DNA of 35,065 bases from Candidatus Bathyarchaeota archaeon (GTDB taxonomy: Archaea; Thermoproteota; Bathyarchaeia; Bathyarchaeales; Bathyarchaeaceae), in contig JACUTO010000001.1 of NCBI GenBank assembly GCA_014859755.1, forward strand, positions 1 to 35,065, in the 5' to 3' direction. The position numbers were made by a program, and so were the translations under genes. The notes under the pieces are model-generated. The model saw nothing but the letters and a program-made list of their open reading frames with translations, did no database searches and was not told the DNA's origin. This document shows, in pieces, positions 877 through 7,586 of the stretch; within the stretch, counting starts at the first letter, position 1, and every line of letters starts with the position of its first letter.

Positions 877-1938
877 TTATTCGGTTTTCCCGGTTGTTTT
901 CTTGACCTTTGTGAAATAGACCAGAAGGGCTACTCCGCCTATTGCTATTATCGCTGTTGCGGCTACAACCCATGTAGTTGGGCAAGGCTCGGTAGTTGGT
1001 ATCGGTGGGGGTTCTTCATCAGGGAATTCTGGAATCACGACGTGGTCCATAAGTGGATAGCGGTCTTGATTGTTTTCATCGATGACGTATGGTGTGTCCC
1101 ATATGCCTGAACCATCCAGTTCCTTAGCATTTGGGTATCTATCCTCATAGTCGCTCCAGTAGTTACCGCCTGAAGGATAACCATCATCCCAAATGTTCAC
1201 TGAGATAGCCGAAAAAGGCTCCTCCCAATGAACATCGTTAACCTGTTTCGTGTTATGGATGAAGCTATTATGGTAAATAATGTTGTTTTGAGACCCAGCG
1301 AAGGGAACATGCCCACTGACGTAGATGCCTTCCTCGTTTTTTGCTATATAGTTTCCAATAATTTTGTTTGAAGACCCGAAGAAGTGGATGCCAACATCGT
1401 TGTTTATTATGTTGTTTCCAGAAATATTGTTATAGTGTGAGCCTTGCTCGAACGCGCTTACACTTCCTCCGAGCGCGACGCCACGTTTATTTGCTGTTAT
1501 GTTATTTCCGGAAATGGTGTTATTTGAAGCTAGCCAAAACCATATTCCAAGAAAGTTGTTTGTTATGTAGTTTCCAGAGATAATGTTGTTTGAAGAACCA
1601 TTGAGGAAGATACCCTCTCTGAATCCTTCGATTTCCATATTCCTAATAAACACATTGCTCCTACTCGTCAGGCTTATTCCTTTTCCGTTTCCTGTGCCTT
1701 GTAGGGTGTAGCCTGCCCCATCAACCACAATGTTATCCCTCTCCACAACAATAGAATCGTTGATGTTGCCTGTGAAGGTGTAGACGTTTCCTTCACGCTG
1801 AATCTTATCCGTTCCCTCAACACTTCCATCAGCCCTAATGTAAATTGTCTCCTCTGCTACGACTGGACTTTTGAACCTCATAACCATTGCTGTTGAAAAG
1901 AGCACAAATACAAAGGTTAACAAAACAATCTTCTTCAT
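877..1938 (-). CDS. Secreted, membrane-anchored right-handed beta-helix (PbH1/NosD-like) surface protein, copy A
   Basis: 353-aa ORF. It has a signal peptide (MKKIVLLTFVFVLFSTAMV) and many NNxIxGNxIxxN beta-helix turns. The conserved tail GGNYWSDYEDRYPN...GIWDTPY...DRYPL is typical of NosD-like archaeal proteins. The C-terminus is a TM helix plus basic tail (GVALLVYFTKVKK). It is a paralog of 5105-6268. Confidence 0.85.
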   Translation of the reverse strand: MKKIVLLTFVFVLFSTAMVMRFKSPVVAEETIYIRADGSVEGTDKIQREGNVYTFTGNINDSIVVERDNIVVDGAGYTLQGTGNGKGISLTSRSNVFIRNMEIEGFREGIFLNGSSNNIISGNYITNNFLGIWFWLASNNTISGNNITANKRGVALGGSVSAFEQGSHYNNISGNNIINNDVGIHFFGSSNKIIGNYIAKNEEGIYVSGHVPFAGSQNNIIYHNSFIHNTKQVNDVHWEEPFSAISVNIWDDGYPSGGNYWSDYEDRYPNAKELDGSGIWDTPYVIDENNQDRYPLMDHVVIPEFPDEEPPPIPTTEPCPTTWVVAATAIIAIGGVALLVYFTKVKKTTGKTE

Positions 1939-2015
1939 ATTTAATCACTATATTACTATGGTATTTCCTATTTACATATTATTCTGCTTGCACTCTGCTT
2001 CTAATTTTTTGGGAG

Positions 2016-2040
2016 ACCTTAAAAACAGAAAAAAGAGGTG
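2016..2040 (-). terminator. Oligo-T tract on the minus strand downstream of the 869-aa gene
   Basis: The minus strand reads CCTCTTTTTTCTGTTTTTAAGG about 40 nt after the stop at 2081. Archaeal termination commonly occurs at oligo-T runs. Confidence 0.4.
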
Positions 2041-2080
2041 CTTTTTGTCGGTGCTACTCGATCTATGGTCTCACATTTCC

Positions 2081-4612
2081 TTACCAATAGACCTCGCCAA
2101 AGTTTATTGCGACTATTAGTGCGTCATCGATGTCGACGATACCGTCACAGTTTAGGTCTGCAATTGAGGTCCACTCGGGGTCCCCTCGAATAGATCCGAA
2201 AACGCCGCTGACGATGATAGCATCATCAATGTCAACTATGCCATCGCCATTCACGTCTCCTGGACAGTGTTTCAATTCGAAAACCGCTGTGACCGTCCAG
2301 TCTTTCCAGAAGTACCAGTATGCTGGGTTCAAATAGTATTTAGTATAGCCATATGTGTAGTATTTGAAAAAGGATCTGTTTCCAGTAGAGCCGGGTTCCC
2401 AGAAGTCATTCACAAAGACCGTATGATATCCCCCGGTTATATCAATGGTTGAGCCAGTGTTTGCAAGGTTATGCATTATGTCGATGTAAACGTCTCTATT
2501 GACGAAATAATTGCCATACTGGTCCGCAGCGAGAACCTTGAAGCTGTACTGGTTTAAATGTATGTCTCCATTTCCATAGACACGCATCTTACCCCAATCC
2601 CACTTCGCAGGTGGTCCACCAGGGAAATTACCGGGCCACCACGTCTCAAATCCTTGGTAAAGTGGACAATAAATGAAAGAACATCCAAACCAGTATAATG
2701 AAGCCAGATTTAGAGCATCTTTTATCGAATAGCTAAGGCTCAAAGCGTAATAATAGAACTTAAGGATGAAGTCTTTGGCCAATACTGTGTAATACCGAAA
2801 ACTTCGGTAAGCCAGAGCGGGAGACGCATTTTCAAAGCCTATGAAACAATAAAGACCGCTGTCAGGACTGCTGTAACCATTAGAGCTTAAGCTATTAGTG
2901 TGAGTCCAAGCGTATGGCATTCCCACCGCTCTTCCGTTACCGTCCACGTACCCTATTAAGTCTCCCTGACGACATGTCCAAATGAACACAAAGAAGTGTT
3001 TGCCTAAACCAGTTTTAGGATAAATTTCATAGTCCCAGATAGTATTGCCGTTGCTGTCAAAATAGTCGTAATGTAAATATCCACCGACGTCGAGGAAACC
3101 CCCATGCCCAAAATGGAATATTGCCACACGATGGAACCCTTGCTCCTTGCTGGAGGCCCAACTTAACACGTTGCTTTTTATTGTACCTGTGTCATAAGCA
3201 TTAGTGACCTCGTATCCTTCCTGACCAAAGCGAGACGCCATGTCGGTGCAGATCTGCTGAGCTGCTGTTCTTTCATAATCAAGCTGATAATAGGTAGAGG
3301 CGTAAGTTATGGCACTTCCACCTGGTTCAGGAAGAGGCTCTGCGTTAGCTGTTGGTATTGGTATTGAGACTATAGTAAGCGGAATCAGAAGAAGAACGCT
3401 CCGCCAAGTTTCAAACATTGATTTTGGCACGTTATCAAGCCTTGAGGTCTTTTTCCTTCTAAAATAGACTGTAGTTGCCCCGAGTGCTATGGCAATTAAG
3501 ATTGGAAGCGCTACCCACGTGATTAGTGTCTGGTTTGGAGCTACTTCACCAACAGAAACTTCATTAGATGGCGGCTTAACGGAGTTTTCACTGTTCACAG
3601 GGGCTTCAGGAGATGATGGAGCACCTCCAAATATCATTGCCCCGATATAACTAACTTCTTTTATGTCTGCCCAGATTCCGACATTTATTCCGGTAACACC
3701 GCCTGGGTAAACTTTGTCTAAGCCTAGTGGGATATACCATTCAGGATACAGTGTTAAGGGATCTCCGCCACGTGCATCCTTTTCCTCCATTGCGTTGAGG
3801 AAACATAACGTTGGTTTGCCTACCTCCACTATATTAAACTCCGTTACTTCTATAGTGTCGTTGCCCATGCACACTTTCCACGAGTAGTTTTTGGCCGCGT
3901 TCATCGCGATTTCTATGGCTTCGTTCTCATCGACGTTTATGTCAGTGCCATCAATTTTATAGAGCCACCAACGGTCAATAAAGTGTTTCAAGAACCCCTT
4001 TTCAAAACCCAAGGATACGCGCTTAGAGCTGGCTTGAACGCCGTTAAATGTGAATGTCCATATGAACTCTGTATGTATTTGGTTAACAATCACTTCAAGC
4101 GTCATATTTCCTGATGTTTTTGTGATGTTTTTGTTGATGTCAATTTTGTCCACCATGCTGCGCATTTCTTGGATATATAAAGCTCCAGAATAGGCATAAT
4201 ATCTGCTGAGAAAGCCCTCAGCCATTTCAAGCACGCTAGTGACTGGTTGAGTCATGGGTGGCGAACCATCGCAATCACTTACATATATCAGCTGTAAAGT
4301 CTTGTTTACAAATGTACAAGCCACCCTTAGCATGCTTTCATTAGACTCAAGAGTGTAGTCCACAATATCTTGGGGAAGAATACCCAAGTACAAATCTTGG
4401 GGGTATTCTTTTGTTTCAGCCGCATACTCTGTTAGGTCGAGACCAACCACGTCGTTTAAGATTGCTAACCCCTTCTCCTGAGTGGATATTTCTGCCGCGT
4501 GCACACTCGGTATTAGGAATGCGTAAGCGCTATAACTCAACAGTATAACAAGGAAAACCGTTATGAACAGAAGCTTTCGTCTAAATTGGTTAGCCATTTC
4601 CATTACCTCCAT
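2081..4612 (-). CDS. Multidomain surface protein: signal peptide, X domain with a PepSY-like segment, TM hairpin, caspase/legumain-like His-Cys domain, beta-rich region, dockerin
   Basis: The ORF is open to 4690, but a GGAGGT Shine-Dalgarno-like site precedes the ATGs at 4603/4597, and the hydrophobic signal (FITVFLVILLSYSAYAFLIPSVHA/AE) follows them. Residues about 66-355 are homologous to ORF 6459-7586. A TM anchor (LITWVALPILIAIALGATTVYFRRKK) is followed by a second signal-like segment (MFETWRSVLLLIPLTIVSIPIPTANA). The motifs VAIFHFGHGG and FFVFIWTCRQG lie 44 residues apart. The C-terminus holds two DxNxDGxVDIDD dockerin repeats. Confidence 0.85.
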   Translation of the reverse strand: MEVMEMANQFRRKLLFITVFLVILLSYSAYAFLIPSVHAAEISTQEKGLAILNDVVGLDLTEYAAETKEYPQDLYLGILPQDIVDYTLESNESMLRVACTFVNKTLQLIYVSDCDGSPPMTQPVTSVLEMAEGFLSRYYAYSGALYIQEMRSMVDKIDINKNITKTSGNMTLEVIVNQIHTEFIWTFTFNGVQASSKRVSLGFEKGFLKHFIDRWWLYKIDGTDINVDENEAIEIAMNAAKNYSWKVCMGNDTIEVTEFNIVEVGKPTLCFLNAMEEKDARGGDPLTLYPEWYIPLGLDKVYPGGVTGINVGIWADIKEVSYIGAMIFGGAPSSPEAPVNSENSVKPPSNEVSVGEVAPNQTLITWVALPILIAIALGATTVYFRRKKTSRLDNVPKSMFETWRSVLLLIPLTIVSIPIPTANAEPLPEPGGSAITYASTYYQLDYERTAAQQICTDMASRFGQEGYEVTNAYDTGTIKSNVLSWASSKEQGFHRVAIFHFGHGGFLDVGGYLHYDYFDSNGNTIWDYEIYPKTGLGKHFFVFIWTCRQGDLIGYVDGNGRAVGMPYAWTHTNSLSSNGYSSPDSGLYCFIGFENASPALAYRSFRYYTVLAKDFILKFYYYALSLSYSIKDALNLASLYWFGCSFIYCPLYQGFETWWPGNFPGGPPAKWDWGKMRVYGNGDIHLNQYSFKVLAADQYGNYFVNRDVYIDIMHNLANTGSTIDITGGYHTVFVNDFWEPGSTGNRSFFKYYTYGYTKYYLNPAYWYFWKDWTVTAVFELKHCPGDVNGDGIVDIDDAIIVSGVFGSIRGDPEWTSIADLNCDGIVDIDDALIVAINFGEVYW

Positions 4613-5104
4613 TTTTTGGTGGAAATCTCTGTCTTTTCTACTGTTCTTTTTCTGGAATCTAAGCCGACTCCCGTCCGCTCCCCTTTCCATGAGGCGTGAG
4701 GCTTAATTCCCCACGCTTTCCCATGCTAGGCGGTGAAACGCCTCCGAAGGAATCACCCTCGGCTTTAATCTCATTTTTTATGTTTTCATGGAAATTGTTA
4801 ATAAAATTTACTGAATGTTTTCAAGATAGACTATGCATCTACAATCGCGACAAATTTGCATTTATTATTCAAGTCAGTACATAAGTTGATGGGACATTCG
4901 TGTATCTCTTGCTTGAGCAAATACATGCAGAGGAGAAGAAAACGTTTCATTTATGCAACCAAGGTATAGTAGAGATATCTCCCGCAAACTCTCCTTTTTT
5001 GTTTTTGAAGGATCCACGAATCGGTTTGCGAAGGCAGCGGTGTGTCATGGCAACCGCAATCACCTTGAGCATAAGTAAAGGTGATGCCCATGGGGAAACT
5101 CTTG

Positions 5105-6268
5105 TTATTCGATTCTCCTGATTTTTCTGAAATAGACCAGAAGGGCTACTCCAACTGCCACTATTATCGCTATGGCAATTACAATCCATGTTGTTGGGAA
5201 AGGCTCTGAATGTTGAGCTATTCTGAAATAGACTATTTCAGAGGCTCCAGTGTACCCGAATGCATCGTTTGCATAAACTCTTAGGATGTGAGAACCGTCA
5301 GATAATCCAGTTAGGGTTGTGTTTCCAGCAATTGTCACAGTGGCTTGGCCGTCCAAGCTGTAACCGATCCATGAAGTTGGTTTATTCACGGTAAAAGTTA
5401 AGGAAACATTGTTTCCAGTGTACGTCTTGTTTTCTGGCGAAACAACGAAAATAGTAGGTGGCGTAGTGTCTGGAAACTCTGGAATTACGACGGGACTCAT
5501 AAGGGGATAGCGGTCTTGATTGTTGGCGTCGATTATGTATGGTGTGTCCCATATGCCTGAATCATCCAGTTCTGTAGCGTTTGGGTATCTATCTTCATAG
5601 TCGCTCCAGTAGTTGCCGCCAGAAGGATAACCATCATCCAAAATATTTGCCGAGGAAGGAAGCCAAGGATTGGACCAACATATATCTTCAACCTGTTTCG
5701 TGTTATTAATGAAGTTATTATGGTAAATAAGGTCATGCGAACCGTGGAATAAGATACCAATTTCGTTGTTTGCTATGTAATTTCCAGTAATGTTGTTTGA
5801 AACCCCAGCCGTCCAAATGCCACTATCAGTGTTCGCCGTTATGTTGTTTCGGGTAATAGTGTTGTTTGAAGAGGGCACGAGGTAGATGCCATCCATGAAA
5901 CTCCGTATTTCCATGTTCTTGATCGTTACGTTGCTTCTGCCTGACAGGTCTATTCCCCGAGAAATATAAGCTGCTGTTCCCAGAAGGGTGAAGCCTGCAC
6001 CATCAATCACAATATTGTCCCTATCAACTTCTATGCCATAATCACCATAATCAATACTAATTTTGCCCGTGAAGACGTAGACGTTTCCGTCACGGTGAAT
6101 CTTATCCGTTCCCTCGACACTTCCGTCAGCCCTGATGTGAATACTTCCACTTGCTTCTACCATGTTGATTTTTGGAAAAGAAACTATCAAGGAACAAAGT
6201 ATCAAGAGCGGAACAAATCTTGATACCAATCTTTTTGTGTTGGATACAACCAACGTTTTACCCAACAT
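5105..6268 (-). CDS. Secreted, membrane-anchored NosD-like beta-helix surface protein with an extra Ig-like domain, copy B
   Basis: The ORF is open to 6406. I prefer the ATG at 6268 because MLGKTLVVSNTKRLVSRFVPLLILCSLIVSF forms a signal peptide and the mature N-terminus (IHIRADGSVEGTDKI) aligns with copy A. It has beta-helix repeats and the same GGNYWSDYEDRYPN...DRYPLM tail. An Ig-like insert spans 5219-5467 (TIFVVSPENKTYTGNNVSLTFTV...SHILRVYANDAFG). The C-terminal anchor is GVALLVYFRKIRR. Confidence 0.8.
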   Translation of the reverse strand: MLGKTLVVSNTKRLVSRFVPLLILCSLIVSFPKINMVEASGSIHIRADGSVEGTDKIHRDGNVYVFTGKISIDYGDYGIEVDRDNIVIDGAGFTLLGTAAYISRGIDLSGRSNVTIKNMEIRSFMDGIYLVPSSNNTITRNNITANTDSGIWTAGVSNNITGNYIANNEIGILFHGSHDLIYHNNFINNTKQVEDICWSNPWLPSSANILDDGYPSGGNYWSDYEDRYPNATELDDSGIWDTPYIIDANNQDRYPLMSPVVIPEFPDTTPPTIFVVSPENKTYTGNNVSLTFTVNKPTSWIGYSLDGQATVTIAGNTTLTGLSDGSHILRVYANDAFGYTGASEIVYFRIAQHSEPFPTTWIVIAIAIIVAVGVALLVYFRKIRRIE

Positions 6269-6425
6269 AATTATTAGCTCTGTACAAAAAAAGATTTGTT
6301 CCTTGATTAGACTAATCCAGAAACTAAGGTCAAAATCCTTTATCCTGAAAATGAACCACCAGAGATCACTAGATAAAAGGATTAGTAGAGATTTTGGATG
6401 AGACATCAGTCTTAATCACAAACTA

Positions 6426-6440
6426 TAAAAAAGGAGGGGT
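6426..6440 (-). terminator. Oligo-T tract on the minus strand just after the stop of ORF 6459-7586
   Basis: The minus strand reads CCCCTCCTTTTTTAT about 20 nt after the stop codon. The same T-rich stretch could also serve as a TATA element for the downstream gene. Confidence 0.4.
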
Positions 6441-6458
6441 GTTGGTGTTCAATGGTTG

Positions 6459-7586
6459 TTAATCTTTTCTTCTTCTATATAACGCTACACCACGTATTAT
6501 GGCTAACACAATTGGAACTGCTATCAAGAGCGGTGTTGGGTCCAGACCTGTTTTGCCAGTAGAGCCACCAAGTGGAGTTTCATTGGGTGGCACTGTTGGG
6601 GTCCCTCCATCAGGGGGGCCTGCAAGGCCACCAGTCGCCGTGACAGAAACAACTTCTCCCGTGTCCGCCCACATTCTAACTTTGATGCCGTTCCACCCAT
6701 AGTAAAGCGTATCGAAATACAATTGAATGTCCCAGAGGGGATATAACGTGTCAGGTTCTCTGGGTTGTGTGCTGAATTCTACTTCTACTGGTTCGTCTAC
6801 TATGTTAAATTCTACTTCTATCCACTCGTTCTGCCAAATCTTTAATGTATAATTTTGTGCGTGTTCCCTTGCAGTGCGTATGGCTTCTTCTTCAGAGACA
6901 TTAACATCTGTGCTGCCTATCTTGTAGAGGTCCCAATCGTCCCTAAATGAATTAAAAGCTCCATTTAGAAAACTGAAGTGTATCCTGTTCCTATCAAAGT
7001 CAATGCCGTTGACCGTGTATATCCAATCGATGTATGTATAGGTTTCACCTGATATTTTAAGCTTCACGTTGCCCGACGTTGTTGTCATGGGTTTTGGTTC
7101 AGTAACCGTGTCCAACATGCCCTTCACTTCATGGATATATGAAGCTCCGGAATAGGTTTGGTATCTGTCAAGAAGACCCCTAGCGTCATCAAGACTGTTT
7201 GTGGAGGGTTGAGCAAAAAGCGGTGAACCCTCAAGCAGGTATAGCTTACAGTAAACCAGAGCATTGTTTCTAAATCTACAGGTCACATCTAATTTGCTTC
7301 CAGCAGATTCGAGGGCGTATTTCACTCTCTCCTCAGTAAGGCCGTCCAAATCAGAGGGAAAATCCATGTGGCTTACCAGTTTTGCGTTATATTTTGTCAC
7401 GTCCAGTTTGACTACGTCTGTTAAGAATGTCAGCGTCTTCTCTGGAGCAGATAACTCTGTCGAGTATGCTTGATTGGGTGCGCCATACACTAAAGATCCA
7501 GGTATTGGAGCAGTCACCATTAGAAGACACACTAAAATCGTAGAGAACAAATGCTCCCGAGCGCATATTTTCCTCAGAATTTTCAT
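6459..7586 (-). CDS. Secreted, membrane-anchored 'X' protein with a PepSY-like C-terminal segment, paralog of the N-terminal half of 2081-4612
   Basis: 375 aa with a signal peptide (LFSTILVCLLMVTAPIPGSLVYGA). It is colinear with residues 66-355 of the 869-aa ORF (e.g. EKTLTFLTDVVKLDVTKY vs EKGLAILNDVVGLDLTEY; DRYQTYSGASYIHE vs SRYYAYSGALYIQE; LYKIGSTDVNVSEEEAI vs LYKIDGTDINVDENEAI). A Pro/Thr/Gly linker is followed by a TM helix and RRRKD. Confidence 0.8.
   Translation of the reverse strand: MKILRKICAREHLFSTILVCLLMVTAPIPGSLVYGAPNQAYSTELSAPEKTLTFLTDVVKLDVTKYNAKLVSHMDFPSDLDGLTEERVKYALESAGSKLDVTCRFRNNALVYCKLYLLEGSPLFAQPSTNSLDDARGLLDRYQTYSGASYIHEVKGMLDTVTEPKPMTTTSGNVKLKISGETYTYIDWIYTVNGIDFDRNRIHFSFLNGAFNSFRDDWDLYKIGSTDVNVSEEEAIRTAREHAQNYTLKIWQNEWIEVEFNIVDEPVEVEFSTQPREPDTLYPLWDIQLYFDTLYYGWNGIKVRMWADTGEVVSVTATGGLAGPPDGGTPTVPPNETPLGGSTGKTGLDPTPLLIAVPIVLAIIRGVALYRRRKD

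Follow-up and report, generated by a model that had tools for sequence, protein, structure and literature searches.

A putatively exported, dockerin-bearing archaeal protein with a predicted caspase-type fold and a conserved His/Cys pair

Does a short His-Gly and Cys pattern in an archaeal surface protein mark a cysteine peptidase related to the caspases? The question is raised by one open reading frame (ORF) in the first 35,065 nucleotides of contig JACUTO010000001.1 (assembly GCA_014859755.1), from a Candidatus Bathyarchaeota archaeon; this whole stretch of DNA is called the window here. The ORF runs from 2081..4690 on the minus strand and encodes 869 amino acids counted from its first ATG, the numbering used throughout. 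The original prediction, made from the sequence, held that two hydrophobic strands in the extracellular part of the protein each end in a potential catalytic residue, with the layout of clan CD cysteine peptidases. Translation agrees with it on the positions: H529 (codon CAT, 3104-3106) lies in RVAIFHFGHGG (residues 521-531) and C573 (codon TGT, 2972-2974) in KHFFVFIWTCRQG (residues 564-576), 44 residues further on, while the interval originally marked, 2591-3328, corresponds to residues 455-700. The only domain that Pfam recognises in the window's protein is a C-terminal dockerin. The reading favoured here, with a probability of roughly two in three (0.68), is that the protein would be an exported, cohesin-docked, caspase-fold cysteine endopeptidase with H529 and C573 as its dyad, belonging to a very divergent, C14-like family that carries no database annotation. 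Its activity is predicted from sequence and structural models.

A caspase-type fold with a conserved His/Cys pair

The two candidate residues lie in a domain spanning residues 451-735 (2486..3340, minus strand), which was modelled with AlphaFold2 from an alignment of 18 homologs collected by a word-indexed protein search. The model has a mean predicted local distance difference test score (pLDDT) of 91.1 and a predicted template modelling score of 0.88. In domain numbering, strand β1 (5-14), helix α1 (21-40), strand β2 (44-49) and helix α2 (55-68) lead into strand β3 (69-77), and H79, equivalent to H529, stands two residues past its end. A β-hairpin and helix α3 (103-110) precede strand β4 (115-121), two residues past which stands C123, equivalent to C573. 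The chain then passes through a well-ordered insert, in which residues 141-146 form a short helix, to β5 (165-170), two helices, and more strands. A His after strand 3 and a Cys after strand 4 constitute the connectivity of the caspase-hemoglobinase fold, and the model thus bears out the proposal of two strands that each end in a candidate catalytic residue.

The expectation of a caspase-hemoglobinase fold is also borne out by comparison with known structures. Foldseek returned 67 matches in the PDB at E<=1e-3, and the best 50 of the 67 are all caspase-type folds. The matches listed have a probability of 1.00 and E values from 8.7e-7 to 5e-4; they include caspase-9 (3v3k, 8.7e-7), GSU0716 (3bij, 1.5e-6), caspases 8, 3, 7, 6, and 1, the SAVED-CHAT protein (8tl0), Arabidopsis metacaspase 9, and MALT1. 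Legumain, gingipain, and clostripain, which the original prediction had named alongside the caspases, are absent from the best 50 of the 67 matches. The clan CD layout therefore stands, with the C14 and CHAT types closest by fold and profile, but these three other families are not the nearest relatives. A sortase-like (clan CL) reading of the "xTC" motif was rejected, the model being an α/β sandwich with caspase-type neighbours and not a β-barrel.

Conservation was counted over 172 aligned homologs, with denominators given by the number of sequences covering each column. The putative nucleophile C573 is invariant (162/162), and H529 is kept in 143/158 homologs, being replaced by Asp in 6, Glu in 4, and Asn in 3; conservation of both residues had been anticipated. 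Around the pair, G528 is kept in 140/158 homologs and W571, two residues before the Cys, in 141/162. Further along the domain, W595 is found in 160/163 and G706 in 156/156 homologs, and a second conserved Cys, C615, occurs in 123/164; in the model it stands at the start of strand 5, on the far edge of the sheet. Because the pair is conserved in homologs and both residues end β-strands in a model with a pLDDT of 91, the pattern does not look like a product of chance.

One part of the original prediction did not survive these counts. The likeness of TCRQG to the QACRG box of caspases is superficial, as just 32/162 homologs have Arg at position 574 and the position two residues before the Cys is usually Trp. 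In family C14 this position is the S1 residue, being Gln in caspases (QACxG) and Asp in metacaspases and orthocaspases (DxCxSG). With Trp in place of Gln or Asp, the P1 specificity of the new family would probably differ from that of both caspases and metacaspases.

A relationship to Peptidase_C14 can be traced at the level of sequence profiles. The comparison set consisted of 17 archaeal Peptidase_C14 genes from the same phylum, all above the PF00656 cut-off, which were translated, aligned, and compared by hhalign with the 172-sequence alignment of the caspase-fold family. The global alignment has a probability of 77% and an E value of 2.4e-6, and the local alignment a probability of 73% and an E value of 3e-5, compared with a probability of 0.2% in a reversed-template control. 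Extended locally, the alignment runs from family columns 6-237 against C14 columns 1-232. It pairs FHFGHGG with FYSGHGA and FIWTCRQG with IFDSCYSGG, and, outside the dyad, IWDYEIY with IWDGELK and SIKDALNLAS with TIEEAFDYAR. Since GHG is paired with GHG and Cys with Cys, H529 and C573 correspond in position to the catalytic dyad of C14. The two families are remotely related.

The new family and C14 share the α/β fold, a His past strand 3 (within G-H-G in the window's protein), a Cys that follows strand 4 and a hydrophobic block, a segment of the form "IWDxE(I/L)" between the dyad residues, and a C-terminal helix of the form "S/T-V-x-x-A-x-D-x-A". The archaeal C14 proteins fetched for comparison bear signal peptides as well. 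However, PF00656 detects no member of the new family, and Trp takes the place of Asp or Gln before the Cys. The new family additionally has an ordered insert of about 40 residues past the Cys with a near-invariant GMPxAW motif, and a "CFIGF" strand and an "M-x-V-Y-G-N" end that are specific to it. It also differs in its linkage to a PepSY array and in the dockerin, carried by the window's protein and by a small share of the relatives (5/67 scanned). The canonical C14 proteins of the phylum (L014-L028) are mostly about 300 residues long with a signal-peptide-like start, and judged by these sequences exported caspase homologs seem common in the phylum. One of them, L027, is 956 residues long and has beta-helix-like repeats and a C-terminal transmembrane (TM) anchor.

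The CHAT domain of the SAVED-CHAT protein (8tl0) likewise shares the caspase-like fold, with a Foldseek E value of 5e-5 and a TM-score of 0.41. CHAT proteins are cytoplasmic effectors of signalling or defence, whereas the new domain is predicted to be exported and has no Pfam CHAT match.

Export signals, a membrane hairpin and a PepSY-like array

The probable true start of the protein is M32 (4595-4597), which would give 838 amino acids; this start is likely because gene finders call the identical protein P0051 (100% identity) at 838 residues. From there, hydropathy and sequence indicate an N-terminal signal peptide at residues 32-65 (4496..4597, minus strand), with a hydrophobic stretch at about residues 39-63 and a probable cleavage site between SVHA and AE.

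The signal peptide is followed by an ectodomain of three PepSY-like repeats at about residues 66-355 (3626..4495, minus strand), a paralog of a 375-residue protein encoded elsewhere in the window (6459..7586). A model of residues 64-385, the N-terminal half, built with seven sequences, has a pLDDT of 83 and shows three helix-plus-sheet repeats. Foldseek matched it to the C-terminal domain of YpeB (5boi, E 8.8e-6), a triple PepSY structure, and to the propeptide of vibriolysin MCP-02 (3nqy_A, E 1e-3). The TM-scores of these matches are 0.29-0.48, and the Pfam PepSY model found no match in this half.

A TM hairpin joins the array to the caspase-fold domain (3341..3532, minus strand). By hydropathy it consists of TM1 (residues 387-410), a basic loop containing RRKK...R (411-431), and TM2 (432-450), an internal signal-like segment that ends in PTANA before EP. 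The signal peptide, TM1 with the RRKK motif, and the second hydrophobic segment together lead to the prediction that residues 451-869 are extracellular. The same junction, namely a TM segment, a basic loop, a second TM segment, and an AxA-like end (VNA, AKA, ANA, or VKA), is found in all 14 fused relatives examined and in loci L003-L005. Among 132 near-complete members of the family, 65 are fused to the N-terminal domain and 67 stand alone with a signal peptide of their own; in the latter the median start of the caspase-fold domain is position 35. Two other accounts of the junction were rejected. A TAA codon in the closest relatives, considered as a stop between the halves, proved on translation to lie at the end of the domain, so that these genes are fused. 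An internal start at M424, producing a separate secreted protein, does not serve as a general mechanism, as relatives lack a Met in the loop.

Beyond the caspase-fold domain, strands at the end of the model suggest a β-rich accessory domain at residues 736-805 (2276..2485, minus strand), a position occupied in relatives by PEGA or Flg_new_2 type domains (Pfam). The C-terminus carries a type I dockerin at residues 810-860 (2111..2263, minus strand; PF00404, E 1.2e-5, 25.8 bits vs a cut-off of 22.9), whose duplicated calcium-binding repeat is readable as DVNGDGIVDIDD and DLNCDGIVDIDD. The window's genome, a metagenome-assembled genome (MAG) of 1.67 Mb that is 81% complete, encodes two cohesin-domain proteins side by side (L032 and L033, contig C64:4302-6710), and these provide a candidate partner for the dockerin.

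These features suggest how the protein may be made. The polypeptide would insert with the PepSY array outside, TM1 acting as a stop-transfer segment, the basic loop remaining inside, and TM2 restarting export. Signal peptidase would probably cut after ANA450 and free the enzyme half, which could then dock on one of the cohesin proteins. A TM2 that serves as a cut, re-initiating signal would explain the presence of a dockerin on a protein made as a membrane protein.

Like the M4 propeptides (vibriolysin MCP-02, 3nqy chain A) and YpeB (5boi), the N-terminal half is, judged by fold, built of tandem PepSY-like repeats, and its coding sequence lies in or next to the gene of the putative peptidase. 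By analogy with these inhibitory and chaperone propeptides, the array probably aids folding of the peptidase or restrains it. The arrangement in the window differs in that the partner is a cysteine peptidase by prediction and not a metallopeptidase, the link is a TM hairpin and not a cleavable linker, and the repeats are without a Pfam PepSY match.

Peptidase, scaffold or processing enzyme

If the favoured reading is right, the domain would act as an extracellular cysteine endopeptidase in which the C573 thiolate attacks the scissile bond and H529 serves as general base and acid. The conservation of the pair at exactly these positions, with the Cys in every homolog covering the column and the His in 90%, would be hard to explain without catalysis. 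Accessory domains point in the same direction. Pfam found Flg_new_2 in 13, PEGA in 12, PKD in 6, and a dockerin in 5 of the 67 members scanned, as well as LamG and CARDB, and PKD, PEGA, CARDB, and LamG are typical of secreted hydrolases. One of these 67 members is fused to a Peptidase_M14 carboxypeptidase domain.

Several results weigh against this reading. Scans with Pfam and NCBIfam and a phmmer search of the PDB gave nothing that matches residues 451-735. In the window's protein PF00656 (Peptidase_C14) has no match at E<=1, and the Pfam models of C13, C25, and C11 are also unmatched; across 67 full-length members, a Pfam scan at E<=1 gave no match to any clan CD family, including PF00656, CHAT, C25, and C11. 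Two profile searches of the PDB were run, the first of which was contaminated by TM columns of its alignment, and the family profile found nothing significant among PDB sequences, the sole clan CD entry being the CHAT protein 8tl0 at E 1.9. The Foldseek TM-scores of the domain are modest, only 0.40-0.50, and the hhalign probabilities of 73-77%, over 194-197 aligned columns, are moderate. Moreover, only 78/158 homologs have Gly at position 530, directly after the His, the others including Met in 27, Ala in 12, and Leu in 10. The 15/158 homologs without the His, which have Asp, Glu, or Asn, may include pseudo-enzymes or members with a variant mechanism. Both the cleavage proposed after A450 and the part assigned to the PepSY array are, in addition, steps that we infer. 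On the other side, the searches of Pfam, NCBIfam, and the PDB returned no confident match to a non-peptidase family. The members that have exchanged the putative catalytic His for Asn, Asp, or Glu, P0028 and P0030 among them, retain the Cys.

The missing His, the poorly kept Gly, and the Trp at the S1 position, where Gln or Asp would be expected, are all compatible with the best placed of the alternatives, in which the caspase fold has no peptidase function and serves as a pseudo-enzyme in binding or scaffolding, or uses its Cys in redox chemistry or metal binding. Prokaryotic caspase homologs with a His/Cys dyad, and pseudo-variants of them, are known according to one report (PMC6426788). This alternative is nevertheless unlikely given that Cys and His are retained at exactly the dyad positions. 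A disulfide between C573 and C615 is likewise judged unlikely from the topology of the model, which places the strand of C615 at the other edge of the sheet.

The genes around the fusion suggest a different use for the same fold and dyad, that of a transpeptidase or dedicated processing protease acting on the C-terminal anchors of co-encoded surface proteins. On the minus strand of the window the order is the PepSY-like paralog (6459..7586), a beta-helix gene (B), the fusion gene, and a second beta-helix gene (A). Gene A (877..1938), downstream of the fusion, encodes a surface protein with a NosD-like parallel beta-helix, anchored by a C-terminal TM segment (Pfam and NCBIfam). The neighbouring beta-helix and PepSY-like products all end in a TM anchor and a basic tail. 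In the loci of 11 relatives the PepSY-like protein is fused to the enzyme in five (L003, L004, L005, L009, and L010) and encoded by an adjacent gene on the same strand in four (L006, L007, L011, and L012), which makes nine of 11. A NosD-like beta-helix gene lies downstream in three (L003, L008, and L009) and adjoins on the opposite strand in L010. Clan CD enzymes that do comparable work include the GPI8 transamidase, the PorU sortase of type IX secretion, and legumain-type ligases, and the TM hairpin, through which the enzyme would be produced at the membrane, also speaks for such a task. However, the neighbours have no recognisable sorting motif in common, and the beta-helix proteins have no match to a CTERM sorting domain in NCBIfam. 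The variety of modules at the C-terminus (PKD, PEGA, LamG, and dockerin) suits displayed hydrolases better, and up to eight paralogs per genome would be unusual in a housekeeping sortase. A role in processing is thus rather improbable. Within the window, at 877-7586, the PepSY-like/beta-helix pair is present twice, with the enzyme in one copy alone.

A more elaborate proposal, which we hold to be doubtful and a little less probable again, is that the PepSY array, the caspase-fold enzyme, and the anchored beta-helix protein form an archaeal maturation system for surface proteins, gated by PepSY, that cleaves or transfers the anchors of its neighbours. If true, it would be a functional analog of GPI8 and PorU and a sorting machinery new to archaea. 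Finally, a chance match of the motif in an unrelated fold, conceivable for a short H-G...C pattern in a domain that no sequence model recognises, is contradicted by the Foldseek matches, the hhalign result, and the conservation counts, and is highly implausible.

Distribution of the family and what it means

The caspase-fold family comprises about 600 clusters at 50% identity. When 1.84 billion cluster representatives were scanned in full with HMMER, 606 proteins matched at E<=1e-3 and 391 at E<=1e-10. Among 301 genomes sampled from the phylum, the domain is present in 19, with up to 8 matches per genome. All but one of the 19, namely the window's own and 17 more, belong to a single order of Bathyarchaeia. 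The window's genome has it in a single copy. One member from a Candidatus Bathyarchaeales archaeon, P0024, is annotated at NCBI merely as "hypothetical protein"; at residues 190-328 the strands of its His and Cys are separated by an inserted stretch of about 140 residues.

Several paralogs in relatives have a single in-frame stop in the caspase-fold domain. In L011 (contig C83 of genome G109) a TGA stands in the hairpin directly past the His (...GDWNGPF, stop, EPHY...), and in L012 (contig C18 of genome G148) a stop splits the domain into two ORFs. Such stops could mean that the genes are pseudogenes or are recoded, or could come from errors in sequencing.

The remainder of the window (8296-33132) is given over to housekeeping genes, including an Oxidored_FMN/Pyr_redox_2 fusion, 3-hydroxyacyl-CoA dehydrogenase, LonB, and P5C reductase (proline biosynthesis), together with the purine biosynthesis genes for an AIR synthase-related protein, an FGAM synthase-like protein, and GARS.

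Secreted clan CD peptidases of the gingipain-like C25 and clostripain-like C11 families have been reported in Bathyarchaeota and Thermoprofundales (PMC6752024). The window's genome encodes a canonical Peptidase_C11 of its own (L031, contig C131:349-1413), and no match to C14 or C25 was found in this 81% complete MAG. The original prediction of a surface-displayed, dockerin-bearing peptidase therefore holds as to the export signals and the dockerin; its view that such a secreted peptidase would be unusual in an archaeon does not hold for this lineage. The new family resembles these C25 and C11 enzymes in lineage, in its predicted extracellular location, and in a presumed part in the degradation of detrital protein, but differs in having no Pfam C25 or C11 match, in the absence of both from the Foldseek matches listed, and in its accessory architecture. 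A literature search found no paper joining PepSY, caspase-like, and archaea, and the publications that mention both Bathyarchaeota and dockerin deal, by their titles and abstracts, with other topics. The idea of a clan CD peptidase secreted by an archaeon is not itself new; the novelty is in this family and its architecture.

Bathyarchaeia are among the most abundant archaea of anoxic sediments and are thought to live partly on detrital protein, and their extracellular peptidases are surveyed by means of Pfam and MEROPS models. Such surveys would miss the new family wholly, with its roughly 600 clusters and as many as 8 copies in a genome. If its predicted activity is real, the family would extend clan CD by a group whose S1 residue differs and whose specificity is therefore probably new. 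The way it is wired would be unusual as well, a PepSY propeptide-like array being joined to a cysteine peptidase through a TM hairpin, with a dockerin for display.

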